IMG/VR virus record: IMGVR_UViG_2718218304_000001
Coordinates: 32,001 to 96,000 of that record
Length of the DNA: 64,000 nucleotides
Origin: a virus
Taxonomy: Duplodnaviria; Heunggongvirae; Uroviricota; Caudoviricetes
Direction: 5' to 3' (one strand)
Of the stretch, positions 4,091-58,633 are shown piece by piece (positions within the stretch are counted from its first letter, which is position 1; every line of letters begins with the position of its first letter). A program made the translations under genes and the position numbers. Below the pieces are notes generated by a model. The model did no database searches. It saw only the letters and a list, made by a program, of their open reading frames with translations, and had not been told where the DNA came from.

Positions 4091-4110
4091 TGTGAAGAAT
4101 GGTTGCTTAA

Positions 4111-6144
4111 TTACTTAACCTGGTGGCCAGGTTTAGCACCGACATCCGGGCTTAACAGGAAGATATCTTTCCCGCCAGGGCCAGCAGCCATCACCATGCC
4201 TTCGGAGATACCGAAGCGCATTTTACGCGGAGCCAGGTTAGCCACCATAATGGTGTGACGACCAATCAGTGCCTGTGGGTCTGGATAAGCAGAACGAATG
4301 CCGGAGAAGACATTGCGTTTTTCACCGCCGAGATCCAGCGTCAGGCGTAGCAGTTTGTCAGAACCTTCTACAAACTCTGCGTTTTCAATCAGCGCCACGC
4401 GCAGGTCAACTTTGGCGAAGTCGTCAAAGGTGATAGTTTCCTGAATCGGGTCGTCAGCCAGTGGGCCAGTTACCGGTGCGGCTGTGGCTTTCACTTCTTC
4501 TTTGGATGCTTCCACCAGTGCTTCAACCTGCTTCATATCGATGCGGTTATACAGTGCCTTGAACGGATTCACTTTATGGCCCAGCAGCGGTTGCTGGATA
4601 CCATCCCAGGTCAGTTCTGTATTCAGGAATGCTTCTGCACGTTCAGTCAGTTTCGGCAGTACCGGCTTCAAGTACGTCATCAGCACGCGGAACAGGTTAA
4701 TGCCCATAGAGCAAATCGCCTGCAGATCGGCATCGCGTCCTTCCTGCTTCGCCACCACCCACGGAGCCTGTTCATCGACATAGCGGTTAGCCAGGTCAGC
4801 CAATGCCATGATTTCACGGATAGCTTTACCAAATTCGCGGCTTTCCCATGCTTCACCAATCACTTCAGCAGCATCAGTGAAGGTTTTATACAGTTGCGGG
4901 TCAGCCAGTTCGCCTGCCAGCACACCGTCAAAACGCTTATTGATAAAGCCCGCGTTACGGGACGCCAGGTTAACCACTTTGTTAACGATATCGGCATTCA
5001 CACGCTGAACGAAATCCTCCAGGTTGAGATCGATATCATCAATACGCGAAGAGAGTTTCGCAGTGTAGTAGTAACGCAGGCTGTCAGCGTCAAAATGATT
5101 CAGCCAGGTGCTGGCTTTAATAAAGGTGCCGCGAGACTTGGACATCTTCGCGCCGTTCACCGTCACATAGCCATGAACAAACAGGTTGGTCGGCTTGCGG
5201 AAGTTGCTGCCTTCCAGCATGGCAGGCCAGAACAGGCTGTGGAAGTAAACAATATCTTTACCGATGAAGTGGTACAGCTCGGCGGTGGAGTCTTTCTTCC
5301 AGTATTCATCGAAGCTGGTGGTATCGCCGCGCTTGTCGCACAGATTCTTGAAGGAACCCATGTAGCCAATCGGCGCGTCCAGCCAGACGTAGAAATATTT
5401 GCCCGGCGCGTTCGGAATTTCAAAACCGAAGTAAGGCGCATCGCGGGATATATCCCACTGTTGCAGGCCGGATTCAAACCATTCCTGCATTTTGTTCGCC
5501 ACCTGCTCCTGCAACGCGCCGCTGCGGGTCCATGCCTGCAACATTTCGCTGAAAGAAGGTAGATCAAAGAAGAAGTGTTCGGAATCACGCATTACCGGGG
5601 TAGCGCCAGAAACCACCGATTTCGGCTCGATCAATTCAGTCGGGCTATATGTTGCGCCGCAGACTTCACAGTTATCGCCGTATTGATCTGGCGCTTTACA
5701 TTTCGGGCAGGTGCCTTTTACAAAACGATCCGGCAGGAACATGCCTTTTTCCGGGTCGTACAACTGAGAGATAGTGCGGTTTTTAATAAAACCGTTCTCT
5801 TTCAGGCGAGTATAGATAAGCTCAGACAACTGACGGTTCTCTTCGCTGTGCGTCGAGTGATAGTTGTCATAGCTGATGTTAAAGCCTGCGAAATCAGTCT
5901 GGTGTTCCTGACTCATTTCGCCAATCATCTGCTCCGGTGTGATACCAAGCTGCTGTGCTTTCAGCATGATCGGCGTACCGTGGGCATCGTCGGCACAGAT
6001 GAAATTAACCTCGTGGCCGCGCATTCGCTGGTAACGAACCCAGACATCAGCCTGGATGTGCTCCAGCATATGGCCGAGGTGGATTGAGCCGTTAGCGTAC
6101 GGCAGCGCGCACGTCACCAGAATTTTCTTCGCGACTTGGGTCAT
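4111..6144 (-). CDS. metG: methionyl-tRNA synthetase
   Basis: Translation starting [29 protein letters not shown] matches E. coli MetG over its full 677 aa as I recall it; the ORF-track start at 6273 is an upstream in-frame extension. Confidence 0.95.
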
Positions 6145-6301
6145 AGTAGGCATTACTTCTTTGTAGTGAAAAGGGGCTTGATAGTAACAAAATGGCCTTA
6201 TGTCTGCCATGTGATAACAGCATTTCTCATAAATGATTAAATGTCGTAGCTGGAGTACACTACAAGGCGACAATTGCGCAAATTAAAATAAAGGAGACGG
6301 G

Positions 6302-7402
6302 ATGAGCGAGTCCAAATCGCCGGATGCCCTGAGAGCAATGGTAGCCGGTACGCTGGCTAATTTTCAGCACCCAACCCTGAAACACAACCTGACTACGCTT
6401 AAAGCGTTACACCATGTTGCGTTGATGGATGACACACTGCATGTCGAACTAATCATGCCTTTCGTGTGGAATAAGCCTTTTGAAGACCTGAAAGAGCAAT
6501 GTAGTGGTGATCTGCTCCGTATCACTGGCGCAAAGGCTATTGACTGGAAGCTGTCGTACAACATTGCCACGCTTAAGCGCGTCAAAAACCAACCAGGCAT
6601 TAATGGCGTTAAGAACATTATCGCCGTCAGCTCAGGCAAGGGCGGCGTGGGTAAATCCTCCACGGCGGTAAACCTGGCACTGGCGTTGGCTGCTGAAGGT
6701 GCGAAAGTTGGTATTTTGGATGCCGATATCTATGGTCCATCAATTCCAACCATGCTGGGCGCGGAAAACCAACGTCCAACCTCACCGGACGGTACTCACA
6801 TGGCACCTATCATGTCTCATGGCCTGGCAACCAACTCTATTGGTTATCTGGTCACCGACGACAATGCAATGGTGTGGCGTGGACCGATGGCCAGCAAGGC
6901 GCTGATGCAGATGTTGCAGGAAACTCTATGGCCTGATCTGGACTATCTCGTTCTCGATATGCCGCCGGGCACTGGTGATATTCAGTTGACGCTGGCGCAG
7001 AACATTCCTGTAACTGGTGCGGTTGTGGTAACTACGCCGCAAGACATCGCGCTGATCGATGCGAAGAAAGGCATTGTGATGTTCGAAAAAGTCGAAGTGC
7101 CGGTACTGGGTATCGTCGAAAACATGAGTGTGCATATTTGCAGTAACTGCGGTCATCACGAGCCAATTTTTGGCACCGGTGGCGCACAGAAACTGGCCGA
7201 GAAATACAACACGCAGTTGTTAGGCCAAATGCCACTTCATATCTCTCTTCGTGAAGATCTGGATAACGGAACACCAACCGTTATTAGTCGTCCAGATAGC
7301 GAATTTACGGCTATTTATCGTGACCTCGCAGATCGCGTTGCCGCCCAAATGTATTGGCAAGGTGAAGTAATACCTGGCGAAATCGCATTCCGCGCAGTGT
7401 GA
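6302..7402 (+). CDS. apbC: Fe-S cluster carrier ATPase ApbC/Mrp
   Basis: Contains GKGGVGKS P-loop and CxxC; near-identical to E. coli Mrp/ApbC from memory. Confidence 0.95.
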   Translation: MSESKSPDALRAMVAGTLANFQHPTLKHNLTTLKALHHVALMDDTLHVELIMPFVWNKPFEDLKEQCSGDLLRITGAKAIDWKLSYNIATLKRVKNQPGINGVKNIIAVSSGKGGVGKSSTAVNLALALAAEGAKVGILDADIYGPSIPTMLGAENQRPTSPDGTHMAPIMSHGLATNSIGYLVTDDNAMVWRGPMASKALMQMLQETLWPDLDYLVLDMPPGTGDIQLTLAQNIPVTGAVVVTTPQDIALIDAKKGIVMFEKVEVPVLGIVENMSVHICSNCGHHEPIFGTGGAQKLAEKYNTQLLGQMPLHISLREDLDNGTPTVISRPDSEFTAIYRDLADRVAAQMYWQGEVIPGEIAFRAV

Positions 7403-8530: not shown

Positions 8531-10093
8531 ATGAAAATGACAAGTATTCAACAACGTGCAGAGCTTCATCGCCAGATCTGGCAAATTGCTAACGATGTCA
8601 GGGGTTCAGTCGATGGATGGGATTTTAAGCAGTACGTTTTGGGCGCGCTTTTTTACCGTTTTATCAGCGAAAATTTTTCCAGTTATATTGAAGCCGGTGA
8701 TGACAGTATCTGTTATGCGAAACTGGATGACAGCGTAATTACTGATGACATTAAAGACGATGCCATCAAAACTAAAGGCTACTTCATCTACCCCAGTCAG
8801 CTTTTCTGCAACGTAGCTGCGAAAGCAAATACTAATGACAGACTGAATGCAGATTTAAACAGCATCTTCGTTGCTATCGAAAGTTCTGCTTACGGTTATC
8901 CTTCAGAAGCTGACATCAAAGGTTTGTTTGCTGATTTCGATACCACCAGTAACCGCCTGGGTAACACCGTTAAAGATAAAAATGCCCGCTTGGCTGCGGT
9001 TCTGAAAGGGGTTGAAGGGCTAAAACTTGGTGACTTCCATGAACATCAGATTGACCTGTTCGGTGACGCCTATGAGTTCCTGATTTCTAACTATGCGGCG
9101 AATGCCGGTAAGTCCGGCGGCGAGTTCTTTACACCGCAGCACGTCTCTAAGCTGATTGCACAACTGGCTATGCACGGGCAGACCCACGTTAACAAAATCT
9201 ACGACCCGGCAGCAGGCTCCGGTTCGCTGTTGTTGCAGGCGAAAAAACAGTTTGATGACCATATCATCGAAGAAGGTTTTTTTGGTCAGGAAATCAACCA
9301 TACGACCTATAACCTGGCGCGTATGAACATGTTTTTGCACAACATCAACTACGACAAGTTTGATATCAAGCTGGGTAATACACTGACTGAGCCGCACTTC
9401 AGAGATGAAAAACCGTTTGATGCCATCGTTTCTAACCCGCCGTATTCGGTGAAATGGATTGGCAGCGATGACCCGACGCTGATTAACGATGAACGTTTTG
9501 CCCCGGCTGGCGTTCTGGCCCCCAAATCCAAAGCTGACTTTGCGTTTGTATTACATGCGCTGAACTATCTTTCGGCCAAAGGTCGCGCTGCGATTGTCTG
9601 CTTCCCAGGCATTTTTTACCGTGGCGGCGCGGAGCAGAAAATCCGTCAGTATCTGGTCGACAATAACTATGTCGAAACCGTGATTTCACTGGCACCGAAT
9701 CTGTTCTTTGGCACCACTATTGCCGTCAATATTCTGGTGCTGTCTAAACATAAAACGGATACCAAAGTTCAGTTTATTGATGCCAGCGAACTGTTCAAAA
9801 AAGAGACTAACAACAACATTCTGACCGATGCTCATATCGAACAGATTATGCAGGTATTTGCCAGCAAGGAAGATGTTGCTCATCTGGCGAAATCTGTTGC
9901 GTTTGAGACTGTTGTCGCGAATGACTATAACCTGTCGGTGAGCAGCTATGTGGAAGCGAAAGATACTCGCGAAATTATCGATATCGCTGAGCTGAATGCT
10001 GAGCTGAAAACCACGGTCAGCAAAATCGACCAGTTGCGTAAAGATATTGATGCGATTGTTGCTGAGATTGAAGGTAGCGAGGTACAGGCATGA
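8531..10093 (+). CDS. hsdM: type I restriction-modification methyltransferase subunit HsdM (type IC, EcoR124I-like)
   Basis: NPPY motif ([10 protein letters not shown]) and AdoMet-binding DPAAGSGS; sequence matches my recollection of EcoR124I HsdM. Confidence 0.9.
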
Positions 10094-14400: not shown

Positions 14401-14575
14401 CTATATTCGCACGTCTTTAAAACGCGAATACGCCACCGAAAATGGCACAGAATTAAACGAGACATTACCAAAACTTAGTCCGTTAAACCCGCAATATAAA
14501 ACGAAAAAACAGACCGTTTTCCAGAAAATCGTCACGTTTATTGAAAAGTTCAAAGGAGTAGGTGGGCAGATATAG
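11459..14575 (+). CDS. hsdR: type I R-M restriction subunit HsdR (helicase-nuclease)
   Basis: 1038 aa; Walker A TGSGKT and DECH box; only a 120-nt gap after hsdS. Confidence 0.9.
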
Positions 14576-14633
14576 TGTATTAATCTGAACCAGATCTGGC
14601 AGACATCTGTGCAAATTGCAGATAGCTGTCAGA

Positions 14634-15110
14634 TCAAACCATCGTAGGGATGTTTGTATCCACTTTGAACTCAGGTACACCAACGAACTCTTTAACCTTC
14701 ATCTGGTAGCCGGTTCTGTCAGTTTTGATGACTTCCTGTTTGCCCTCTATAAACTGCTCACGCCACTCGTCGCGACGGGAAGCTGGCATGATCAGCAAAA
14801 CGTTAGTCATATCCGTGACCTTCCTCCAGTACTCGGCCCAAATATTCTGTTTCACCCATTCCAGATCGACTTTATCCAGCCAAGCTCGATTCAAACGTGA
14901 GCGTTCTTCATCTGGTCGATGGTTCAGTTGCAGCAGGCGATTAATCATGTTGTGGCGTTCGTCGCCATAAACGAAGTCGTGAACCTGATACATGAAGGCG
15001 ATCTCTTTCTCGCACTCGGCTACGATTTCGTGGATGACGTTCATTTCCTGACGATAATCGATAGCAGTGTTTGAGTTGGTATCGTCGATGATGGAAAGAG
15101 CTGTATTCAT
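14634..15110 (-). CDS. hypothetical protein, convergent with hsdR
   Basis: ORF track; normal GC; no recognised domain. Confidence 0.35.
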   Translation of the reverse strand: MNTALSIIDDTNSNTAIDYRQEMNVIHEIVAECEKEIAFMYQVHDFVYGDERHNMINRLLQLNHRPDEERSRLNRAWLDKVDLEWVKQNIWAEYWRKVTDMTNVLLIMPASRRDEWREQFIEGKQEVIKTDRTGYQMKVKEFVGVPEFKVDTNIPTMV

Positions 15111-15213
15111 AATTGCACCATTAAGAAAAGATTTGTTTAATAGTGCAATTATTTCAAAAATGAAAAGGTGCTAAATAGAAATTAACAGGCAATCCTTTAA
15201 ATAAAGGTATTTG

Positions 15214-15828
15214 CTAATCATACTTTGAGGTATTTATAACCAGGATTTTGTTTGTATAAATCTTCTTAATATCCCATGTGACATTACCGGAATACCATTG
15301 ACCGTTATATACTTGGTTTCCAGTTGCACCGGTCATAGTTACATAGACAGGTCTGTCGTAATCGGTTCGTCTATAGTTATAAACCCCAACCATAGCAGGC
15401 ATTACTGCGCACGGATACCCCATATCTATTGTAAATTGTGGGTCAGTAATAGTGATAAGTTTTGCATCAAGGGGCATCATCTCACCGTGATACACCATTG
15501 CGCCTGCGCTGTTATACATGGCAATGCCATAGCCAGAATGTGGTAACACCATATCAGAAAAAGCATAAACTGTTATTGTTCCGGGGCTACCATTTACCTG
15601 ATGCAATCTGAGAGCATTGTATCCGTTACTATGTTCATGAATAAACATCATGTTCGCCTTATTGCTGCTTTTTATGAAGAAAAAGCATGATTTGTTTGAT
15701 GGGATTGATGTTTGAAAAACAGAACCTTTAGATGTAGACATTGTCCCTTTATTAATCAGATTTTGCGGAGTAAATTCAGGACTCATCCACAAACTTCCAT
15801 CTGATTGAGTAATTGACATCCCGAACAT
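15214..15828 (-). CDS. hypothetical Asn/Tyr/Gly/Thr-rich protein (AT-rich gene; start refined)
   Basis: The track start at 15885 is a non-ATG (TTG) codon preceded by an in-frame stop; the ATG at 15828 lies 2 nt after the stop of the upstream ORF. Confidence 0.35.
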   Translation of the reverse strand: MFGMSITQSDGSLWMSPEFTPQNLINKGTMSTSKGSVFQTSIPSNKSCFFFIKSSNKANMMFIHEHSNGYNALRLHQVNGSPGTITVYAFSDMVLPHSGYGIAMYNSAGAMVYHGEMMPLDAKLITITDPQFTIDMGYPCAVMPAMVGVYNYRRTDYDRPVYVTMTGATGNQVYNGQWYSGNVTWDIKKIYTNKILVINTSKYD

Positions 15829-15830
15829 AA

Positions 15831-16112
15831 TTATCCCCAGTATGTGTATATGTAAGAACCAAGCCCCGTATATAAATTTGACCAACTAACCGTATTTCCA
15901 TTAATAGTAACATTTGGAACAGGTAAATTGATGTAGTTGTCGTTGTTAAGAGGCATTAATGACCACACGGCATGTAGTGATTTACCCGGTGGCGGATTAG
16001 AGTACGTCTTAGAGCCTGATGACGCCGTAAATCGATCAAGAAAAAAAATAGGTGTAAGGAAGCCAGTAACGTTAATTCCTTTATTGTTGTAAATCCCTGT
16101 ACCGTATGCCAT
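15831..16112 (-). CDS. hypothetical Asn/Tyr-rich protein (AT-rich gene)
   Basis: ORF track; its stop is 2 nt from the next start, consistent with translational coupling. Confidence 0.35.
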   Translation of the reverse strand: MAYGTGIYNNKGINVTGFLTPIFFLDRFTASSGSKTYSNPPPGKSLHAVWSLMPLNNDNYINLPVPNVTINGNTVSWSNLYTGLGSYIYTYWG

Positions 16113-16166
16113 TTTTCACCCTTGTTTTTATCAACACAATATGGCCGATCATGCGGCCATATCAGA

Positions 16167-16736
16167 TCAATTAGAGCTTTGAAAGACTTTGTGTGGTTGT
16201 GTTGCGAGGTTATGTCGATGGCTTAACTCACGCATCATGTCTTCAAGGCGACTCTTTGTGTCGTCGAGTTGGTCGGCCATTGCTCCCAAAAGCTGACGAA
16301 CGGCCATCGGATCATCGCTGTTTAGTGATGGCATTTTATAACCCGCCTGAGAAGACATAAGATTGAACGCAGACATCAACATCGTTAGAGAGGATTTAAG
16401 CCCAGCAATTTCACGATCTTTGCTGGCAATAATCGCCTCACTCTTGTTAGTGTCATCAGTTCGTTGAGTCTCGCTCACCATATCCAAAGTCGCCTGCAAC
16501 TTATCAGCGCGCTCTTTTTCAGCAAGATAATGAACACCGAAATGATGTGCTAAAGCTACAACCTGAGTTGGCTCTTCAAAGGTGGACTCAAAATTAAGTG
16601 CTGTAACCACTCTCTCAAATATGGAAACGTCTTCTATTCCTCGAAGAATGGCTAACATTTTGACCAGTTCATTAGCATCCATTTCTTCGAATAAGGCGTT
16701 TTGTTCATCAGCTATCGCTTTGCATTTCTTGCACAT
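16167..16736 (-). CDS. hypothetical protein
   Basis: ORF track; motif-1 and AGGAAAAACAC-ATG context upstream. Confidence 0.4.
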   Translation of the reverse strand: MCKKCKAIADEQNALFEEMDANELVKMLAILRGIEDVSIFERVVTALNFESTFEEPTQVVALAHHFGVHYLAEKERADKLQATLDMVSETQRTDDTNKSEAIIASKDREIAGLKSSLTMLMSAFNLMSSQAGYKMPSLNSDDPMAVRQLLGAMADQLDDTKSRLEDMMRELSHRHNLATQPHKVFQSSN

Positions 16737-17033
16737 GTGTTTTTCCTAATGCTTAAACAAGTTGTTTTCTTATTGGCTTTATTGTGATGTGGCATAAAAG
16801 GGGAGCAAGCTAAACGTAAAGGTGCAAACTCTCTATTTCGGTCAACGAAACACAAGGGCCATTTGGCCCTTGTCATTAACACGTTGCTTTACGGACTAGC
16901 GGATAAGCGAAGTAGATCGCCAGACCAATGAGGACGCCATCAGAAATGACAGACATCATCTTTCCCGTAAAATCCACCAACACCGCTATCACCAGAAGAG
17001 CAATGACGGTCACAAGCCGGAATCTCTCAAGCA

Positions 17034-46351: not shown

Positions 46352-49300
46352 TTACTTATTTATTGTCTCCGCGATATCAGCCAGAATGGCCTCCAGTCGC
46401 TCTCCTTCTTCCGGTCGGAAGTACAGGATATTCGGGTTAAATCCGTAGAAGACGGTTGCATCAAGCTCTGGGAAGTACTCCTTACGACCAATCAGATCTG
46501 ATGGTTTACTCTTATTGTTAAATAGTGCGGTTGAACGACTACCACACGTCAAAATGTAGGTTGGTCGTACAAGATTAATTTCTTCCCGCATAAAGTCTGT
46601 GAACTGGCCTATCTCGTCTTTGGTATAGTCTTTCTCTTTGTCCTTAACCTTCTTACAAACACCCGTGACATAAAGATCGCCCATGCGCAGATCTCCAACT
46701 GTCAGTAGTTTTGCCTTAAAGTCGTCGTATCCGTTCTCCATGAAGTAGCCGGTACGAGCGTCATTGCCGTTCGCATTGTCCAGAATGATCATGATTTTGG
46801 GTTTAATACCAATAGTCGGGCGTATCAACTCCTCACCCAAGCCCATTTCATCCGCCATACGTGTCATGAGTACGTTGATTTCGGCAGAACGCTTAGGATT
46901 CATTTCGAACGGACGTGATGCTTTAACAGCGTCAATGATGAGATTGCCCATCAGCTCAGCCTGGTCGCGCAGTCGTTCAGGATCAGTTGCTGGCAGACTG
47001 CCTGGCTCAATTGACGCAAAAGCCCCTACTTTATGAAGCGACTCGCGTACACGACTGTTACATGCACGCTTCTCGACCGCTTCATCGAATTGTGCCACTG
47101 ACTCGAATTTGCCACCAACTTTCTCACGCGCACGCATAATTGCCTGACAACCATTTTCAGAACAGCCTTTCACAGCAGAGAATGGCGCATACAGTGCCTG
47201 ACTGCCGTCTTCGAGTGTGCGGATCTCAATTCGGTTAGATGACACATTAACGTCTGGTGGCAATACGCGAATGCCATAGGTCAGCGCATCCTTCACCAGC
47301 CCCTGATGCTTATCCTCGCCCAGAATGGTGAGCGCAGCTGCGAAGAACTCAGCAGGGTAGTGCGTCTTTAGCCACATAGACTGATAACTGATTAAAGAAT
47401 AAGCAACGGAGTGTGATTTATTGAAGGCATATCCACCGAACTTCTCAAAGGCGTCCCATATTTCTTGGGCTTTTTCCTTACTGAGACCTTCTTGTTCAGA
47501 GACGATCTCCACGTAGTCTATGCCGTCACTAATAGCCTCGCTGTAGCTTCTACGCTTACCGTCTGAGCAATCCAGTTTTGCGTGTTTGTGAACCTCTACA
47601 GTACCTCCATTTTTGAGTGACAGTGTCACCCAGCCTGCTTGTGCTCGTTCTACAAAATCGCTGCCGATCGCTTTCATCTTATCCATGTTCTTTTTACCGA
47701 TAGCGGAACGCAGAGCGTCTGCTTCGGCCATAGAGAACCCGGCAAGTACTCGGGAACTTTGCATGATTTGTTCCTGATAGAGCAAAACACCATTAGTCTC
47801 CCGGGTGACTTCCTCAAGACGCGGATGAATTGAATGTGGAGCCATGAAGCCTTTGGCCACGGAGACATAGTCGTCCAACATGCCGGATTGGATCGGGCCA
47901 GGTCGGAAGAGTGCGGTCGTGGCGACAACGGTTTTAAAGCTCATTGGCTCAATGCCACCGCCTAGATCTTTAAGCAGCTTGCGCATGGGGCCGGACTCCA
48001 GCTGGAATACGCCCTGTGTATACCCTGCAGCAAAACCATCCAGCACCTTGCGATCTTCAAGAGAAATGGCATCAAGATTGATATCTTCACCTGTGTTCTC
48101 TTTTATGTAGCGTTTTGCACTATCGAGCAAATCGAGAGTTGCCAGGCCAAGCACGTCCAGCTTAATTAGGCCCATAGCCTCGCAGTAACGCTTATCAAAT
48201 GCGATACAACGCGCGTCACCACGGCGCTCAACCGGTGTACGTTCTGTCAGAGGAACACCTGCTACAATCATCCCTGCCGCATGTCTACCAAAGCCACGCA
48301 TAAGGCTTTGTAACTTGCAGGCTGCATTGAATGCATCAGGATATTTTGTTGCGTATTTGTCGAGACTTGCCAGTTGTTCGCGCAGCTCTTCCAATGGAAG
48401 GCTATCATCCTCGACGTTCTTCAGTTCTTTTGATACCGCCATATCTGCGGACTCCACACCATAAATACGAGCGGTGTCACGTAGTGCAGAGGCTGCGCCC
48501 AGGTAGGTGAAGTTCGGAATGCCTGCAACGTAATCTTCGCCGTAGCGTTCATTCAGATACTCGATCACCTCATGGCGACGTGCCTGGCTGAAGTCCAAAT
48601 CCGCATCTGGCAAGTCGAGACGCTCAGGGTTGATGAAACGTTCAAACAGAAGACCGTGACGGATAGGGTCGACGTTGGTTATGCCTATGCACCATGCCAC
48701 CAAAGAGCCAGCGGAGGAACCACGACCAGGCCCGACAGGAATGCCAGTTTCACGGCTGTGATTCATCAGATCGCGTACCATCAGGAAGTAACCACAAAAT
48801 CCCAGGCGAGTAAGCGTGTCCATTTCGTACTTAAGTCGCTCAACATAAACCCTGTTCTCAGAAGCCGGTGGTGTGTATCCAAACTCTTTTGTGGTAAGAC
48901 GTTTACGCAGCCCTGCAACAGCCAGTTTCATCAGCGTTGCAGGTTCGTCGTCTGCCATCTTGGGCAGTGCTGGTGGCAATTCATGCCAGCGCCATGTACA
49001 GGCTTCGATAATGGAGTCCTGCGTTGTTGAGGCCATTGCAGCTGTTACCGGCACATCCATGCGAACGGAGAAGGCTTTAAGCGCCTCAAGGAGATGGCGG
49101 CGACCATTGACGGCGTTATCTCGCTGGTGGGGTATACGCAGACGATGCGGCTGGTCGATTTTTATGTTGTTCGTAACCATGTGCGCAATGTCTTTAATGT
49201 CTGCATCGTCGATCGATTCGTAATAAGCGGGATAGAACGCTACTGGCTCTATTTTCAGTGCGCTGGCTACTTTCATCGCTCGGACGTTAATCTGGTCGTA

Positions 49301-49858
49301 GAATGGGGTAGGGTGCGGATAAACCACGCTATAGAAGTTGTCTTTCCCGCCCGCTGTAATCAGTGAGCTTATGATTTTTGCAAAATCGTTGCGTTGGAAC
49401 ACGCTACCGATGTCGGAAGTGAGCAGGATGATGTTGCCTTTGGCATATGTAGAAACCAACTGTTCGAGCGAGAGACGCGGTACAAAGTAGAACTGTTCTC
49501 GTGTGTTGGCCACCGTCATTAGTTCGCAGATGTCGCGATATCCTTGCTCATTTTTAATTAGAGCGGTAAACGAGTAGTTACGTCCCCGCTCTAATGATTC
49601 CATACATCTCATAGATTCTTTAGCAAGTTTAGCCCGGTGCTCGTATGTGGGATCATCAACGATATTTAGTTTCACACCACAAATAACCGCCATGTCGTCA
49701 CCAGCGGCACGTTGTAGTGGAATAACACTCGCAATATTCATGCTATCTGCTGAAATTACAGCGGTGTAGCCAGCTTCTCTGGCAATCTTCACCGCGTTTT
49801 CTGCTTTTAGAGCCGACTCCCCAAGTGAGAAGTCAGTTCGAACCATCAGTGCTTTCAT
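46352..49858 (-). CDS. DNA polymerase III alpha-type (DnaE-like) replicative polymerase with PHP domain
   Basis: GPGRGSSAGSLVAWCIGIT and FNKSHSVAYSLISYQSMWLK signatures; the C-terminal ~190 aa does not resemble the host DnaE C-terminus. Confidence 0.85.
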   Translation of the reverse strand: MKALMVRTDFSLGESALKAENAVKIAREAGYTAVISADSMNIASVIPLQRAAGDDMAVICGVKLNIVDDPTYEHRAKLAKESMRCMESLERGRNYSFTALIKNEQGYRDICELMTVANTREQFYFVPRLSLEQLVSTYAKGNIILLTSDIGSVFQRNDFAKIISSLITAGGKDNFYSVVYPHPTPFYDQINVRAMKVASALKIEPVAFYPAYYESIDDADIKDIAHMVTNNIKIDQPHRLRIPHQRDNAVNGRRHLLEALKAFSVRMDVPVTAAMASTTQDSIIEACTWRWHELPPALPKMADDEPATLMKLAVAGLRKRLTTKEFGYTPPASENRVYVERLKYEMDTLTRLGFCGYFLMVRDLMNHSRETGIPVGPGRGSSAGSLVAWCIGITNVDPIRHGLLFERFINPERLDLPDADLDFSQARRHEVIEYLNERYGEDYVAGIPNFTYLGAASALRDTARIYGVESADMAVSKELKNVEDDSLPLEELREQLASLDKYATKYPDAFNAACKLQSLMRGFGRHAAGMIVAGVPLTERTPVERRGDARCIAFDKRYCEAMGLIKLDVLGLATLDLLDSAKRYIKENTGEDINLDAISLEDRKVLDGFAAGYTQGVFQLESGPMRKLLKDLGGGIEPMSFKTVVATTALFRPGPIQSGMLDDYVSVAKGFMAPHSIHPRLEEVTRETNGVLLYQEQIMQSSRVLAGFSMAEADALRSAIGKKNMDKMKAIGSDFVERAQAGWVTLSLKNGGTVEVHKHAKLDCSDGKRRSYSEAISDGIDYVEIVSEQEGLSKEKAQEIWDAFEKFGGYAFNKSHSVAYSLISYQSMWLKTHYPAEFFAAALTILGEDKHQGLVKDALTYGIRVLPPDVNVSSNRIEIRTLEDGSQALYAPFSAVKGCSENGCQAIMRAREKVGGKFESVAQFDEAVEKRACNSRVRESLHKVGAFASIEPGSLPATDPERLRDQAELMGNLIIDAVKASRPFEMNPKRSAEINVLMTRMADEMGLGEELIRPTIGIKPKIMIILDNANGNDARTGYFMENGYDDFKAKLLTVGDLRMGDLYVTGVCKKVKDKEKDYTKDEIGQFTDFMREEINLVRPTYILTCGSRSTALFNNKSKPSDLIGRKEYFPELDATVFYGFNPNILYFRPEEGERLEAILADIAETINK

Positions 49859-53789: not shown

Positions 53790-54040
53790 TCAATCAATCC
53801 ATTCTAACTTATACTATGGTAAGGAATACTACTAAAATTTGTATCAATACTGAATACATTCATATCATATGCAAGTTGATTTTCTTACCTGTTTTGGGCT
53901 AATTTTTCTCCGTGCAATGGCCTTTAACCGGTCTTTTAAGTGCCTATCGAAAAAAATGATAATAGCTTTACAACCCTAACCTTTGATGTAATATCGGTAA
54001 GCACTTACCAGAGAGAATTGAACGCGCAAAGGTTGTAACC

Positions 54041-54427
54041 ATGTCTGATAACAAGATTGAATTTATAGAAAGTCGCTACGCTGCTTTTATCGCAGGGTTG
54101 ATTGAATCCTCACCTATGAGTCAGGCCCAAATAGCCAGACTTATTGGTTATAAAAATGCCAACAACCTTTCTTTAATTAAAAGTGGCAAAATTCCTTTGC
54201 CTATCGATAAGGTTCGTCCGTTGGCGCTGGCGCTGGGTATTGAGCCAAGTCGTCTTATGATGATGGTGCTGGAAGAACGCCAACCTGAACTCGCAGCATT
54301 TTTATACAAAGAAGGCACCGCTCCTCTTAACGAGGACGAAAAACAGGTTCTTGCTGCATATAACGAGCGATTCGGTAAAGAGAAAGGCGCATCACAAAAG
54401 GTTGTTGAGGCCATAAAGTCTCTATGA
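54041..54427 (+). CDS. helix-turn-helix (XRE-like) DNA-binding regulator
   Basis: MSQAQIARLIGYKNANNLSLIKSGK is HTH-like; convergent with the recombinase gene. Confidence 0.5.
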   Translation: MSDNKIEFIESRYAAFIAGLIESSPMSQAQIARLIGYKNANNLSLIKSGKIPLPIDKVRPLALALGIEPSRLMMMVLEERQPELAAFLYKEGTAPLNEDEKQVLAAYNERFGKEKGASQKVVEAIKSL

Positions 54428-55525
54428 AAAATTTACACGAATAAGCTCTGTTGATAGACGATCTCCCTTGAATTTGTGGTCAATTTCGTCTAAATCCGGT
54501 TGCTCTACGATTGATGCGATGTACGTCGAGAAACTTTCTAAGGCGTCTCGCATCTCGTCCATATAATCGTGCCGGTCGTAGACTCGATCTATCCCCTCAA
54601 GACTGTGGTTCATGATTTTGCGTGATACCTCCTGGCTTATGCCTAATGCTGGGAAGTAACTACGCGCAGTACGGCGCAAGTCTCGGGGTGTAAATGGCTC
54701 AAGCTCCATCAGTTCTGGTCGTTCCAGAATACGACGTAATGCCTGGGCTATTGCCACTTTAGACATAGGAAGGTCTTTCCCGATTTTTTTATTCGAAGGC
54801 ACGAGCCACTGGCTGTCTTTACCATATTCGAACAACTCTTCAATACAAGTGCGCATTAATGAGCTTAAAGGCAGAGAATGCTCACGGGCAGATTTGTTCC
54901 TCTTGCCTTGATTCCAAACCCCACGCTTAAGATTGAACTCACTTTTTTTAGCCCGCAGTACTTCGTCAGGTCGTCTTGCGGATACAAGACATAGCCTGGC
55001 AGCCCATTTTGTACCAGCACACACATTGAAGTAGTCCCATATATTCCAGAACACCCATACCTCTGCGTCGGTCAGCTTCCGCTCGCGAGGTGTGGGCTTT
55101 GCGCCACCGGCAACTTTGTTAAGTGACATATCGTTTAACGGTGACACGTCTATCATCCCCTGGAAGGCGCACCAGCTAAGGAACTGCTTCATCAGAGAGA
55201 AAACGCGGCGGCCCATAACAATTTTGCCATCCAGTATTAGTGGGTTGACCAGTTGGTTCACCATGAACCTATTAATGTCACTTACTTTTACATCGGCAAT
55301 GTGCGGCAAAACATGTATCAAAATACAATGAACAGCGATCTCTGGCCGACGTCTGGTTATCAGCAGAGATAAGCGAGTGAATAACATGAATGCGTCCGAG
55401 AATCTCATGTCATTGCTAACCTGCGAGATCATAACGGCCTGCATTTGAGATGCTCTTTCGAGATACTCTATCGCCTCTTTTGAGGTGTTCTCCGCAGCGC
55501 GTGCTCTGTCAAAGCTATTTTTCAT
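54422..55525 (-). CDS. tyrosine site-specific recombinase (integrase or resolvase)
   Basis: C-terminal catalytic region with RDLRRTA...MNHS...RVYDRHDY (R..H..R..Y). Confidence 0.8.
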   Translation of the reverse strand: MKNSFDRARAAENTSKEAIEYLERASQMQAVMISQVSNDMRFSDAFMLFTRLSLLITRRRPEIAVHCILIHVLPHIADVKVSDINRFMVNQLVNPLILDGKIVMGRRVFSLMKQFLSWCAFQGMIDVSPLNDMSLNKVAGGAKPTPRERKLTDAEVWVFWNIWDYFNVCAGTKWAARLCLVSARRPDEVLRAKKSEFNLKRGVWNQGKRNKSAREHSLPLSSLMRTCIEELFEYGKDSQWLVPSNKKIGKDLPMSKVAIAQALRRILERPELMELEPFTPRDLRRTARSYFPALGISQEVSRKIMNHSLEGIDRVYDRHDYMDEMRDALESFSTYIASIVEQPDLDEIDHKFKGDRLSTELIRVNFS

Positions 55526-55623
55526 ATGACAATCACCGAGTTACGCCGATGTACTGTATAAGTAAACAGTATATTAGGCATAGATTCTTATAGGATCAAG
55601 AGTAAAAGTAACTCATTTTTACT

Positions 55624-55656
55624 AATGATTCCATACATAGTAGGTATGGAATCATT
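55624..55656. promoter_or_regulatory. lox-like recombination site candidate: perfect 13-bp inverted repeat around a 7-bp spacer
   Basis: AATGATTCCATAC-ATAGTAG-GTATGGAATCATT, ~100 bp upstream of the recombinase start. Confidence 0.5.
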
Positions 55657-55735
55657 TTGACGTTGTTTTTTGAATTTTAAGGGAAATGGGAGTGAGTTTG
55701 GTGGGAATAAAAACGGCTCCTGTGAGCCGTTAAAA

Positions 55736-55981
55736 TCAGAGGGTGCTGACGTATGCAGCCAGTTCTGTGTATCCGCCAATCGGCTGGCCATCGATCAGCA
55801 CCTGGGGGATAGTCTCTACCGGTTTACCAACAATTTCACTTAGTTTTTCCTTGTCGATACCGGCAGTGGTGATGTCGATGTACTCATAATCACCGTAGCC
55901 ATGTCCCTTTAGTTGCTTCGCCAGCTCGACCGCACGTTTGCAGTATGAGCAGTTATCTCGTCCGTAGATAGTGATCGTCAT
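55736..55981 (-). CDS. glutaredoxin-like protein
   Basis: CSYC active-site motif near the N-terminus of an 81-aa protein. Confidence 0.65.
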   Translation of the reverse strand: MTITIYGRDNCSYCKRAVELAKQLKGHGYGDYEYIDITTAGIDKEKLSEIVGKPVETIPQVLIDGQPIGGYTELAAYVSTL

Positions 55982-56328
55982 TGCTTTGCCTCATGCCACT
56001 TTTGCTTCAGGAGATAGCCTTCCAGGGGCCAGATTTGATCGATAGCATCTTTTCGAGCGTACTCGCGACCAACATCAAAGTTGAAGATTTCTGGTCTTAC
56101 GCACGCAGATTTTCCCGTTACGGTATATCCATTTTTGAGAACCATAACGCAGAACGTTAAGAGTTTTAACGACTCATGACCTTTGTCGATATCTGTTTTT
56201 GAATTGTAAACAGAGATGAAGTTATCCCCGTGGCTGGCATCATATGCAGTGAAATAATGTTCACTTTGAATGAGTTGTTCAATGTGTTCAGGGGTGACTT
56301 TTAGTGGTGTGTTATCTTTGCTGGTCAT
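55978..56328 (-). CDS. hypothetical protein
   Basis: ORF track; stop/start overlap with the glutaredoxin-like gene. Confidence 0.3.
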   Translation of the reverse strand: MTSKDNTPLKVTPEHIEQLIQSEHYFTAYDASHGDNFISVYNSKTDIDKGHESLKLLTFCVMVLKNGYTVTGKSACVRPEIFNFDVGREYARKDAIDQIWPLEGYLLKQKWHEAKQ

Positions 56329-56549
56329 TATTTCTTCCTACAAAGTTCGTAGACTTGACTCTTTCAGTTGCAAAAAAGGGGCCGAAGCCCCTTTGAATTT
56401 TGCGCTGAAAAAAAGTGTTGCTAGGATGTTAGCAAGCTATGGTTAAGAACGTCTGCCGTAATTGTCTATCACAGCGTTGAGCGGTCTGGTTTATGTTAGC
56501 GGAGTCTTAATCTGGGTGATTAAAAGGCCAAACCGCTCAACGCTGTGTC

Positions 56550-56636
56550 TGGCGGAGAGTAATGGAATCGAACCATCATCGCTTGCGCAATGGGACGGTT
56601 TTCAAGACCGCTTGAGCACCATGCTCCCTACTCTCC
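56550..56636 (-). tRNA. tRNA-Ser (anticodon UGA), long variable arm
   Basis: Hand-folded: acceptor GGAGAGT/ACTCTCC, anticodon loop CUUGAAA, T-loop TTCGATT, encoded CCA; D-arm is atypical. Confidence 0.5.
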
Positions 56637-56956
56637 AGCTATTGTGATGGTCGGTGCTGAACTCCGACACAGGGTTGTAGCAAGCCCCGCAAAGCGCGCA
56701 CTACTGTAGTTGCGGCACATCAGCCTGTGCATTCATCACAACGGTAAGATCACTACCTTTCGACCAGTCATTGTGCACATGAACGACGATTAACCGTAAT
56801 GATCTTATCGTTGTGTTGTGAAGCCAGATGCTTATCTTCTGGTTGCTTCAAAGAGCTGCACTTCCTCACAACGGTAAGAGCACTGGTCTGACTCTATCGA
56901 TTTACGGGCTTGTGGGTCAGTATCGCCGATTCGCCCAATGCTCTTACCTGTTGTGT

Positions 56957-57032
56957 TGGTGCCGGTTAACGGGATCGAACCGCTGACATCCTGCTTACAA
57001 GGCAGACGCTCTACCAACTGAGCTAAACCGGC
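56957..57032 (-). tRNA. tRNA-Thr (anticodon UGU)
   Basis: Hand-folded: acceptor GCCGGTT/AACCGGC, D-arm GCTCAGTTGGTAGAGC, anticodon loop CUUGUAA, T-loop TTCGATC, CCA. Confidence 0.7.
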
Positions 57033-57036
57033 AATT

Positions 57037-57123
57037 TGGTGGGGAGTGATGGAGTCGAACCACCCGAGTCGCAATGACAGTAGATTTACAGTCTACCCCG
57101 CTGCCCCTACGGACTAACTCCCC
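57037..57123 (-). tRNA. tRNA-Tyr (anticodon GUA), long variable arm
   Basis: Hand-folded: acceptor GGGGAGT/ACTCCCC, anticodon loop CUGUAAA, T-loop TTCGACT, CCA. Confidence 0.6.
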
Positions 57124-57128
57124 TAAAT

Positions 57129-57203
57129 TGGCGATGGTGGGTGGATTCGAACCACCGACCAGTTGGTTAACAGCCAACTGCTCTACCGCTGAGCTACACC
57201 ATC
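57129..57203 (-). tRNA. tRNA-Asn (anticodon GUU)
   Basis: Hand-folded: acceptor GATGGTG/CACCATC, D-arm GCTCAGCGGTAGAGC, anticodon loop CUGUUAA, T-loop TTCGAAT, CCA. Confidence 0.7.
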
Positions 57204-57981
57204 AATTCAGCACTGCCAGTATTTATTACTCAACAGTGCCAATCGCGACGGTTTAGTTTCTGCCAGGAAACGCACCGCTACTTGCACTTTTCGTTAGTGC
57301 CAGACGCTTTCGACTTCGCTCAATAGTAGAAGGCAAAATCTTTAAGTAGATGATGTTTCTGAGGACAGCACCTACTTTGTAATTTATACAATGTGATGTA
57401 TGGAATCATTTGTTGTGAAAACAGGCACCAATGGCAACAGTGGTTAAACCTACACAACAATCCTGTCTTCACAACGTTGAGGCCACTACTCCGATTGAAT
57501 GTTTGCCCAACATGTTACATATCAACGCTCGCCGGTATCTCTGTGAATAGAACCTTAGAATTGATAAAAATGTAATGGCCTCAACGTTGTGTGCTGGCTA
57601 ACCATACCAGCCGGGCTACGTCGCCGCTTTTTAACCCAGTATAAACGACATAATTGAACAAAATGACGTAACAGGATGGGCGGTCAGTGGCTAAGAATCC
57701 GGGAGTCATATGGAGTTGAAAATATACCAACCGCCCATTCTGTTACTTCATCGGAGGGAACATGAATGTTCCCTCCTGCGTTCTGCAATCACACTCGCTC
57801 AGTGTGTCCCATTTCGGTAACGAGGCTGGAAACTGACCTCGCTGGTGTTTGGCTTATTAGGCTACTGCCAGATAGACTTCTTCGTTTGCACTTGTATTTA
57901 AGTTCAAACAGTCGCGTCTCAACGAAAACAAAGTCATCTTATACATAAAAGATAAGTAAGTAAATACTTATCACCATGTTT

Positions 57982-58272
57982 TTATTCGGTTGTGACTTTT
58001 TTGATCAAGGCCACTCTACGACTAGGTGTTCTTGTGATGGTGGCAGTGAATCGTTTCGCTTGGATAGTAATGGTTTCGTTCTCCTTAAGTTGCCCGTAGC
58101 GAGTTTCCACCAGGGTGCCAAGACGCCACAGACCATCATCGATACGTTTATGACTGGCAAATTTAATCAGCAGCAGTTTTACGACTAACTGACCTACGTA
58201 AAAGGCGAATGCGACTCCGGCCGCTAAGAAATAGGTGGCCAACCACCAGTCCCAAGAAGTTAAATTGCTCAT
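57982..58272 (-). CDS. membrane-anchored hypothetical protein
   Basis: N-terminal hydrophobic helix (WWLATYFLAAGVAFAFYVGQLVV). Confidence 0.35.
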   Translation of the reverse strand: MSNLTSWDWWLATYFLAAGVAFAFYVGQLVVKLLLIKFASHKRIDDGLWRLGTLVETRYGQLKENETITIQAKRFTATITRTPSRRVALIKKVTTE

Positions 58273-58417
58273 TTTCTAACCTTTGTTTCATGAACTACCC
58301 GATACACACGCTTTCCGATGCACAGTGTTTTGGTTTTAAGTTCCTGCTTAATTAAATCACGACAGATGCCGAAGCCGATAAGGAAGCCACCCATAAAAGC
58401 TAATGAGATGTATGGAA

Positions 58418-58633
58418 TCATTTTAACGCTCCTGATTCTACTAATTGCTGTAGCAATACTTTCCCTTTATCAGTTAACTGGTAGTTGGCCGAACACCACG
58501 TTTCAGAAACGTTTGCAACCAACCCTAACCGCTCTAACTTAGCTCGCGTTTTAGGCTTCCAGTACTCAGGGAACTCCGGCCACTTACTTATTTCATGAAG
58601 CGTTTCTTTCTCCCGTTTACTTAATACGATCAT
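58418..58633 (-). CDS. hypothetical small protein
   Basis: ORF track; stop/start overlap with the ligase gene. Confidence 0.3.
   Translation of the reverse strand: MIVLSKREKETLHEISKWPEFPEYWKPKTRAKLERLGLVANVSETWCSANYQLTDKGKVLLQQLVESGALK

Follow-up and report, generated by a model that had tools for sequence, protein, structure and literature searches.

A 13-7-13 palindrome beside the tyrosine recombinase gene of SSU5/pSLy3-type phage-plasmids is a candidate core site for plasmid multimer resolution

Introduction

What is the function of a perfect palindrome, built like loxP, FRT, or dif, that lies just upstream of a tyrosine recombinase gene (int), and why do single copies of its arm recur elsewhere in the same element? 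We examined this question in the window, that is, the whole 64-kb stretch of DNA that was analyzed, which is from a phage-plasmid of the SSU5/pSLy3 type. Phage-plasmids of the SSU5/pSLy3/pKpn/pHCM2/pMT1 type are common, being present in ~4.5% of the complete E. coli genomes examined and among ~790 PLSDB plasmids, and bring resistance and virulence cargo. In the literature searched, we found no description of the recombinase target of SSU5/pSLy3-type phage-plasmids.

Results

The palindrome, its flanks, and the int promoter

The features of the locus are collected in Table 1. An earlier note on this DNA had described a perfect 13-7-13 palindrome about 100 bp upstream of the recombinase gene; it is there, 98 bp from the start codon, and the lengths of its arms and spacer match those of established tyrosine-recombinase sites. 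Both sides of the palindrome were also conserved. On the int-distal side, information content was raised from positions -24 to -1 and was about zero past -25 across 47 non-redundant flanks (<75% identity). Beyond these 24 bp lay unrelated cargo, with more than 30 unrelated sequences adjoining the flank, and many E. coli plasmid alignments stop at window positions 55656-55659. A cargo hot spot has its precise boundary at the site. The ~24 bp of distal and ~20 bp of proximal flank appear to be part of the site. They would make it more elaborate than loxP, so that host factors or a control of directionality could play a part. The palindrome was rejected as a terminator or promoter, as no terminator-like or promoter-like match was present there, and Rfam returned the tRNAs and otherwise weak, chance-level matches only.

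Between int and its weak promoter is a LexA-box-like sequence, of which CTG-N10-CAG with TA flanks was kept in nearly all lineages of 57-100% Int identity, with a variable center. Judging by this box, int expression is probably SOS-linked. For a housekeeping resolvase, repression by LexA would be unusual.

Table 1. Features of the palindrome locus (window coordinates)
Feature	Position	Strand	Remarks
int, tyrosine recombinase gene (Int, 367 aa)	54422..55525	-	Pfam PF00589, E 2.9e-10
Putative core site, perfect 13-7-13 palindrome	55624..55656		Near end 98 bp upstream of int start codon (55525)
int-proximal arm AATGATTCCATAC	55624-55636		Part of core site
Spacer ATAGTAG, 7 bp	55637-55643		Part of core site
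int-distal arm GTATGGAATCATT	55644-55656		Part of core site
int-distal flank, conserved 24 bp	55657..55680		Minus-strand consensus towards arm: tCAgATTTcAAAAAAAcgcccttt
int-proximal flank, conserved, ~20 bp	55604..55623		A-run +5..+8, TAT +14..+16, T +19 (21 non-redundant flanks)
LexA-box-like sequence TACTGTATAAGTAAACAGTA	55552..55571		Between weak sigma-70-like promoter and int start
Weak sigma-70-like int promoter	-35 55594-55599, -10 55571-55576	-	Hexamers score under scan threshold
HTH regulator gene	54041..54427	+	Convergent with int; syntenic with int in phage-plasmids
Operator-like palindrome GGTAAGCACTTACC	53996-54009		In HTH gene's own promoter
Four tRNA genes (Ser, Thr, Tyr, Asn)	56550..57203	-	Between palindrome and 57396 copy
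Copy A	58408..58422	-	ATGA stop/start overlap and first five codons (MIPYI) of 50-aa membrane-protein gene (58269-58421)
Copy B	57396..57410	-	ATGATTCCATACAT on minus strand, towards palindrome; non-coding, ~190 bp upstream of tRNA cluster
Copy C	49593..49607	+	ATGATTCCATACAT on plus strand, towards palindrome; antisense in dnaE codons 84-89 (GCMESL)

Linkage to int and co-variation of the arms

Across ~200 related loci and another nine replicons, the palindrome lay upstream of an int homolog every time. Likewise, all 106 matches to GATTCCATAC-N7-GTATGGAATC on viral contigs with enough flanking DNA had an int homolog downstream at a distance of 46-102 bp, in constant orientation. Relatives that keep the recombinase without the site, which the earlier note had said would speak against its proposal, were looked for among these loci, and none was seen. 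The arms were invariant at Int identities between 100% and 56%. A lineage of 57-59% Int identity had its outer arm bases changed on both arms (TGTGATTCC...GGAATCACA), and in lineages of 44-53%, the core of both arms was changed symmetrically (TGACTCCAGAC...GTCTGGAGTCA) with the geometry unchanged; Photorhabdus carried an intermediate arm form. The spacer was always 7 bp long and occurred in at least 12 different sequences, and a flipped version was also seen. This strict linkage in every lineage and context examined, with symmetric co-variation of the arms and a drifting spacer, upholds the assignment to the lox/FRT/dif type.

The pair was also found without phage genes on large replicons of Pantoea (507 kb), Rahnella (722 kb), and Erwinia/Pantoea; from their size, these replicons of 0.4-0.7 Mb would be plasmids. 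Recent exchange at the site between lineages was rejected, as the shared distal flanks were about as diverged as int and there was no clean recombinant.

Single-arm copies of the site

The exact 15-mer ATGTATGGAATCATT occurs on the plus strand at copies A and B, and a further exact copy, C, lies on the minus strand within dnaE (46352..49858, minus strand). The earlier note had reported the first two at 57397..57411 and 58407..58422. Both are real and exact over 15 nt, with each coordinate pair one base off at one end, and the copy in dnaE had been missed. The flanks ctaatga and ttttaacg, said to be common to copy A and the full site, are so in the window and are not kept in other lineages. One 13-mer has five exact occurrences in 64 kb, where by arithmetic ~0.002 would be expected per extra copy, and this cannot be chance. 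A motif test at two mismatches (6 matches against 1.98 expected) is uninformative taken alone. A complete close-relative plasmid of 109,468 bp contained the palindrome and three single copies only, all within 9 kb.

Across more than 200 loci, copies A, B, and C were constant in position, flanks, and orientation. The core of copy B, TGATTCCATACAT(C), was invariant in all lineages with GATTCCATAC arms (56-100% Int identity) and had variable flanks; the SSU5 copy carries a single A>G change. The five codons at copy A were nearly invariant among 33 distinct homologs. Because the protein N-terminus was kept although the DNA was not (L091), and because TAC>TAT variants were found in two lineages, nucleotide constraint on copy A is only partly separable from coding. 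Copy C, which in dnaE codons reads TGT ATG GAA TCA TT, was invariant in 34 distinct dnaE sequences of 79-100% identity that had been extracted without conditioning on the motif. It sits in a loop whose protein sequence is hypervariable, adjacent synonymous sites vary freely, and it was missing where DnaE identity was 65% or lower.

No variant-motif single copies were found in L215, L220, L221, or the complete Providencia plasmid. Changed-arm lineages are without any single copies, so co-variation of the copies with changed arms could not be used as support. In Klebsiella-type lineages, a fifth copy within int (+606) was rejected as a coding coincidence of a conserved VWNQG motif; the codons there vary freely and do not track changed arms. 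A 71-aa winged-helix-like protein, the stop codon of which overlaps copy A, was rejected as the binder, being missing in a lineage that keeps A and B.

A, B, and C are conserved, clade-specific additions that are dispensable for the core system, and they probably bind the same protein as the palindrome. We tentatively raise, as a minority view, the reading that they are Int-binding half-sites with a non-classical job, for example if SOS-induced Int acted on the replication and tRNA operons as a roadblock or an architectural factor (compare XerD at XDS), or that they are rare sfx-like partners for induced rearrangement. Half-sites conserved within coding DNA raise the question of why. A pure resolution model leaves the single-arm copies unexplained.

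The recombinase and where it occurs

The catalytic residues of Int (R185, K211, R284/R285, H307, and Y316) were invariant or near-invariant among the 34 homologs compared. An AlphaFold2 model (pLDDT 85.8) had an all-helical N-terminus, and its top Foldseek match was lambda Int residues 75-356 (TM 0.77), with further matches to Tn1549 Int, XerH, IntI, and Cre. Cre came only from rank 34 on, at 8-12% identity, and phmmer against all PDB chains detected no sequence homology between Int and Cre (no match at E ≤ 1). Neither Pfam nor the model gave PF13356 or a comparable arm-binding domain in Int; a PF13356-type domain is present in more distant homologs (P0114-P0120). Int is modeled as a core-binding plus catalytic tyrosine recombinase fold. 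Four features of a simple tyrosine-recombinase site were found together: inverted arms within the usual ~11-14 bp, an unconstrained spacer within 6-8 bp, a co-varying cognate recombinase, and a catalytic set and fold.

The palindrome might instead be attP-like, with Int integrating the phage-plasmid, or part of it, into a chromosome or another replicon. In both sequence and fold, Int is closest to integrative enzymes (lambda, Gifsy-1, P22-type) and not to Cre, conserved flanks are also a property of attP sites, SOS control would fit an excision/integration switch, and the int block, when compared with SSU5, starts exactly at the tRNA-Asn 3' end. The distribution of the element argues the other way. 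The gene and site were carried by 246-250 of 5,426 complete E. coli genomes, always plasmid-borne and with one site each, and searches of these 5,426 genomes for int or the 45-nt site yielded 262-500 plasmid places and 0 chromosomal ones. Moreover, in every replicon examined, the large ones included, the palindrome was intact and never split into attL and attR, Int is without the arm-binding domain, and no Xis-like partner was identified. We consider an integrative role unlikely.

With high probability, the palindrome is the adjacent recombinase's own site. The full reading we favor, as the probable though by no means certain one, is that it is a core site that resolves plasmid multimers as Cre/loxP does in P1. 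Two Int monomers would sit on the inverted arms of 13 bp, and strand exchange would take place over the 7-bp spacer, as it does at loxP, FRT, or dif. Acting at the palindrome, Int would convert plasmid multimers to monomers, and possibly also concatemers arising from replication or infection. Resolution is the most likely job because the phage-plasmid is extrachromosomal and each copy of it has exactly one site, and the resolution role that the earlier note had suggested fits such an always-plasmid element. The comparisons show that site and recombinase are linked, that the arms co-vary, that the fold and catalytic residues of Int are intact, and that occurrence is limited to plasmids and to a single copy; from these we infer Int binding, strand exchange, and the resolution function. 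Dimers or resolution products were not visible in the assemblies.

Cargo and predicted rearrangement junctions

The tRNA genes are bracketed as the earlier note described, all four lying between the palindrome and copy B, and the interval between these two is a variable cargo region of 1.3-6.7 kb. Int might recombine the palindrome with single-arm copies or with incoming circles, as in an excisable or invertible cassette or integron-like capture, thereby moving the tRNA genes and cargo or inverting the int-dnaE segment, perhaps upon SOS induction. Several observations are consistent with this: A, B, and C are all directed at the palindrome, in the E. coli lineage the arm is followed by an identical 7 nt, ATCTCAT, in A and C, and Rci/sfx shows that single-arm sites can work for some tyrosine recombinases. 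The probably LexA-controlled int and its highly expressed adjacent cargo are also integron-like (PMC9928086).

Such recombination predicts a deletion junction TTTCACAACAAATGATTCCATACCTACTATGTATGGAATCATT, an inversion junction GCTCTAATGATTCCATACATC[A/T]CATTGTATAAATTAC, and also TTTCACAACAAATGATTCCATAC-CTACTAT-GTATGGAATCATT. No junction of a deletion or an inversion turned up in over 200 loci and 246 genomes, in which the flanks of A, B, and C were always parental. The far end of the palindrome-adjacent cargo had no second site, not even a degenerate one, and the cargo varied at no fewer than three separate insertion points. In most lineages, the 7 nt after the arm were not common to the copies, changed-arm lineages have no copies to recombine with, and inversion via copy C would disrupt dnaE. 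The earlier suggestion that the single copies bound an excisable or invertible tRNA cassette is disfavored by the lack of junctions and of a second cargo site, by the constant positions of the copies, by their confinement to one clade, and by the location of one of them within an essential-looking polymerase gene. Int-mediated movement or inversion of these segments therefore seems improbable to us.

The neighboring HTH gene and regulatory alternatives

The palindrome and single copies could instead be repressor operators only, bound by the HTH protein or by Int as a regulator with no recombination, like the mono- and bivalent P1 C1 operators; P1 provides the precedent of asymmetric operators that occur singly or in pairs. 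In every phage-plasmid lineage, the HTH gene keeps its synteny with int, and the two diverge together. On large non-phage replicons, however, int and the palindrome occur without a convergent HTH gene beside int, and the HTH promoter has a different conserved palindrome of its own, an operator-like palindrome/TTACTTA motif that every lineage retains, the changed-arm ones too. For these two reasons, the HTH regulator was rejected as the palindrome binder. In favor of operators, phage SSU5, which is without int and HTH, still has the single-arm copies; it was rejected as evidence of Int-independent single copies, being a unique deletion derivative whose int-less junction occurs in no PLSDB plasmid. 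Against operators, the palindrome lies upstream of the -35 hexamer, no site overlaps a promoter-like match, the sites are clustered in 9 kb of a 109-kb genome and not dispersed, and an HTH dimer would not typically bind 13-bp arms whose centers are 20 bp apart. A purely regulatory role is doubtful in our judgment.

Least credible of all is an RNA-level element in which A and B transcripts pair with copy C in dnaE mRNA, a leader RNA regulates the polymerase, and the palindrome is an RNA hairpin: A and B are exactly complementary to C over 14-15 nt with all transcripts from the same strand, the sole natural copy B change (A>G in SSU5) would retain a G-U pair, and copy B lies within a highly structured non-coding leader, but the identical arm sequence in an int-linked DNA palindrome is left unexplained, copy B is kept in lineages without copy C, no compensatory changes were seen, and the palindrome is upstream of the int promoter, behind a terminator.

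Discussion

If the palindrome is the core site of Int, a close functional parallel would be Cre/loxP of P1, a plasmid prophage whose genome likewise has a single simple site, two inverted 13-bp arms around a short spacer, next to a tyrosine recombinase gene. The expected role in both is multimer resolution or cyclization. The two differ in spacer length (7 bp here, 8 in loxP), in the conserved 24- and 20-bp flanks that appear to belong to the site here, in the LexA box before int, and in the extra single-arm copies kilobases away. Int itself has no detectable sequence similarity to Cre and is structurally nearer to lambda Int. Similar to XerCD/dif and cer/psi, dimer resolution would take place at a short core with inverted arms and a 6-8 bp spacer, and, as in cer/psi, accessory sequence beside the core could favor resolution. 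Xer, however, comprises two host enzymes and different arms, whereas the recombinase here is a single plasmid-encoded enzyme and the core is perfectly symmetric; the flanks are far shorter than the ~180-bp cer accessory region, and no ArgR or PepA boxes were recognized at the site.

Lambda Int/attP shares the best fold match (core-binding and catalytic domains), the 7-bp overlap length, and conserved flanking DNA, but Int here has no N-terminal arm-binding domain and the site no arm-type repeats. In addition, unlike lambda attP, the arms are 13-bp perfect inverted repeats, and the element was never found integrated nor the site split. An integron (IntI/attI/attC) has the same arrangement of a LexA-controlled tyrosine recombinase with a site directly upstream and then variable, highly expressed cargo; the cargo here differs in having no attC-like or second sites and several unrelated insertion points, and the site is a perfect duplex palindrome. 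For the single copies, the Rci/sfx shufflon of R64, the FRT third element, and the Bacillus XerD-binding sites (XDS) are precedents for single-arm or unpaired elements near a full site. Unlike these, the copies here have no common spacer, lie 1.7-6 kb from the full site, and include one in coding sequence, and in contrast to the Rci/sfx shufflon, no inversion isoforms were present in more than 200 loci. Dispersed operators of the P1 C1 type differ as well, since the present sites have no promoter-like matches and are confined to 9 kb of the 109-kb genome.

Naming the site gives a testable maintenance function to a persistent gene of SSU5/pSLy3-type phage-plasmids. This compact recombinase/site pair, unrelated to Cre in sequence, occurs naturally with at least two arm specificities and many different spacers, and could also be a source of orthogonal genome-engineering tools.

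A lox-like palindrome travels with a tyrosine recombinase gene

The window comes from a ~109-kb E. coli phage-plasmid of the SSU5/pSLy3 type, and phage Cyrano (pLF82) and CMS-2020a share 98% identity with it. The palindrome region was matched in 793 PLSDB plasmids (Escherichia, Klebsiella, Enterobacter, Yersinia, Salmonella). Between 46 and 60 kb, all genes lie on the minus strand except one, a convergent HTH gene. Upstream of the tyrosine recombinase gene, int, we observed the 13-7-13 palindrome that the earlier note had called lox-like. Elsewhere in the window, ORFs at ~4100–7400 correspond to metG (methionyl-tRNA synthetase) and apbC as annotated on the near-identical p204A1-109K, host-like genes that are unusual phage-plasmid cargo.

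Features around int, in window positions
Feature	Position	Strand	Remark
int, recombinase gene	54422-55525	-	gene call
Convergent HTH gene	54041-54427	+	convergent with int
Palindrome AATGATTCCATAC-ATAGTAG-GTATGGAATCATT	55624-55656		98 bp upstream of int start
LexA box TACTGTATAAGTAAACAGTA	55552-55571		near-consensus
int promoter-like pair	-10 55571-55576; -35 55594-55599	-	weak
Copy A	58408-58422	ATGATTCCATACAT reads on -	exact 15-nt single arm
Copy B	57396-57410	ATGATTCCATACAT reads on -	exact 15-nt single arm; non-coding
Copy C	49593-49607	ATGATTCCATACAT reads on +	inside dnaE

Two samples were compared: 63 viral-contig loci fetched around int homologs, and all 106 viral-contig matches to GATTCCATAC-N7-GTATGGAATC. 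Wherever these 106 matches had enough flanking DNA, the palindrome preceded an int homolog by 46–102 bp, with the same orientation throughout, and Int identity across these loci ranged from 56 to 100%. The pair was also present amid metabolic and transport genes on a 507-kb Pantoea vagans replicon, a 722-kb Rahnella replicon, and 106–437-kb Erwinia/Pantoea contigs, and neither phage genes nor the convergent HTH gene were found next to int on these replicons, which we infer from their size to be plasmids. The int–palindrome pair is autonomous.

The arms were unchanged over the whole 56–100% Int identity range, and the 7-bp spacer took many forms, including CTACTAT, CTATTAA, TTGTAAG, TTGGTAG, TCTATAG, TTATATA, TATGTAA, TTCTTAG, and TCCTTAG. 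As this asymmetric spacer occurs both ways round relative to int in three lineages, its polarity relative to the flanks appears unconstrained; the flips might, for example, have arisen through inversion of the loop that the perfect arms enclose. The flipped pairs were CTATTAA/TTAATAG, CTATAGA/TCTATAG, and TTATATA/TATATAA (loci L055/L069, L091/L100/L124/L146, and L098/L111 versus their relatives). A lineage at 57–59% Int identity had the outermost arm bases altered on both sides (TGTGATTCC...GGAATCACA). At 44–53% identity (three viral contigs, a Providencia plasmid, a Xenorhabdus phage-plasmid, and Pantoea/Erwinia/Rahnella replicons), geometry and position were the same and both arms read (G/A)TGACTCCAGAC...GTCTGGAGTCA, with intermediate arms in a Photorhabdus element. 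Symmetric arm changes are what would be expected of a dimeric protein site co-evolving with its protein.

Int is the favored palindrome binder

Because the HTH gene lies alongside int in all phage-plasmid lineages, its product was considered as a candidate binder. The HTH promoter has another palindrome, GGTAAGCACTTACC (53996–54009), directly following a TTTACA-N16-TAATAT promoter-like pair and probably an autoregulatory operator of the HTH protein; the TTACTTA motif at this promoter was kept in every lineage, including those with changed int-palindrome arms. This distinct palindrome, together with the int–palindrome pairs that have no HTH neighbor, points to Int instead. The properties of Int fit such a role: it carries a PF00589 domain, and R185, K211, R284/R285, H307, and Y316 are invariant or near-invariant in 34 Int homologs. 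For the confident AlphaFold2 model (pLDDT 85.8), the top structural match was lambda Int residues 75–356 (TM 0.77), then Tn1549 Int, XerH, and IntI, with Cre a weak match; no PDB relatives were found by phmmer. The N-terminal 60 residues are predicted to be helical, and the arm-binding domain PF13356, which more distant homologs carry, was not found in Int.

The LexA box has the weak promoter-like pair on one side and the int start on the other, and CTG-N10-CAG with TA flanks was kept in nearly all lineages at 57–100% Int identity, the center varying. From the position and conservation of this box, int is probably under SOS control.

The site borders variable cargo

Across 47 non-redundant flanks on the side away from int, conservation extended from −24 to −1 (tCAgATTTcAAAAAAAcgcccttt) and then dropped to zero; ~20 bp were also conserved on the int side, and the site as conserved exceeds the 33-bp core. 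The distal flank adjoins more than 30 sequences that are unrelated to one another, and many E. coli plasmid alignments stop at 55656–55659, which marks the site as one edge of a cargo hot spot. Cargo directly past the 24-bp flank differs among relatives and includes hypothetical genes as well as toxin-antitoxin genes of the YafO type. In Cyrano (OV696614, locus L001), the cargo gene CYRAN_43 occupies 9294–9848, a position equivalent to window ~55680. This gene was the top-expressed prophage gene in lysogen RNA-seq, at a reported 723x prophage background (PMC9928086).

The suggestion that the tRNA/cargo segment is an excisable or invertible cassette found no support. The interval from copy B to the palindrome was 1.75–5 kb among E. 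coli-lineage loci, with differences mapping to at least three places: beside the palindrome flank, in the gp49 slot (56371–55994), and within the tRNA cluster. Where cargo adjoins the palindrome, its far end showed no second site, degenerate ones included. There was no deletion product, since none of ~200 distal flanks was that of A or B, and no inversion product, since A, B, and C always had parental flanks.

Single-arm copies are confined to one clade

Both single-arm copies described in the earlier note, A and B, were borne out as exact matches; copy C had been missed. All three point toward the palindrome, as the strands on which ATGATTCCATACAT reads indicate. In the complete relative p204A1-109K (109,468 bp), the palindrome and A, B, and C are the only copies, all within 9 kb. 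Among dnaE segments whose extraction did not depend on the motif, TGT ATG GAA TCA TT of copy C was invariant in 34 distinct sequences (DnaE 79–100% identical), in a DnaE loop where neighboring residues and synonymous sites vary freely and which is entirely different in more distant DnaEs. One dnaE (L030, IMGVR_UViG_2802429232_000002) has a 9-nt tandem duplication, ATGAGATGT, beside copy C, adding three residues to the loop. Every lineage with GATTCCATAC arms had the same copy B core, with differing flanks. Copy A forms codons 1–5 of a 50-aa gene, and protein and translation-start constraint partly explain its conservation; its exact motif was lost in two lineages. We regard the single-arm copies as real elements; they match the arms, cluster near the full site, and converge on it, which together suggests the same binder as for the palindrome. 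They are confined to one clade and were not found in variant-arm lineages, the complete Providencia plasmid included, and so are not part of the core system.

The palindrome, int, and the HTH gene are all missing from phage SSU5, which has A and C exact and B with one change. In this genome (NC_018843 42601–42662, locus L065), 62 bp stand in place of window 57128–53577 (3.55 kb), the difference beginning precisely at the tRNA-Asn 3′ end, and the int-less junction was in no PLSDB plasmid. SSU5 looks like a unique deletion derivative that lost the recombinase and regulator module, so it is hardly informative on any Int dependence of the copies.

A plasmid-borne site

Of 5,426 complete E. coli genomes, 246 carried int and 250 the 45-nt site, every occurrence being on a plasmid, with exactly one site per plasmid. 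As these genomes had no chromosomal match to the site (sensitivity ~20 nt) and the palindrome was intact in all replicons examined, an integrative role is unsupported. Multimer resolution or cyclisation is the function we infer, which a lox-like site present once on an extrachromosomal replicon would fit.

The system is proposed to work as Cre/loxP does in P1, although it falls outside the Cre protein family. Its distinguishing features are the 7-bp spacer, conserved flanks, the LexA box conserved before int in most lineages, and remote half-sites, and modeled Int is structurally nearer lambda Int, yet without the arm-binding domain. A literature search found no paper on this site or on the role of this recombinase. 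The half-sites are the feature that could set the system apart from the known kind.

Two further observations were made. A 570-nt non-coding stretch at 57411–57981 is dense with long inverted repeats, such as CACAACGTTGAGGCC...GGCCTCAACGTTGTG and GGAGGGAACAT/ATGTTCCCTCC (57753–57776), and has a weak tmRNA-like Rfam match at 57806–57908 (E 0.014); its recurrent CACAAC motifs appear again in hairpins between tRNA-Ser and tRNA-Thr (56700–56960), and both stretches may be structured RNA or degenerate tRNA-like elements. In Xenorhabdus contig NJCW01000016.1 (L230), a CobS-like AAA ATPase gene (14481–16802) adjoining cobT has a LAGLIDADG domain, which suggests an intein or homing-endonuclease insertion in this lineage.
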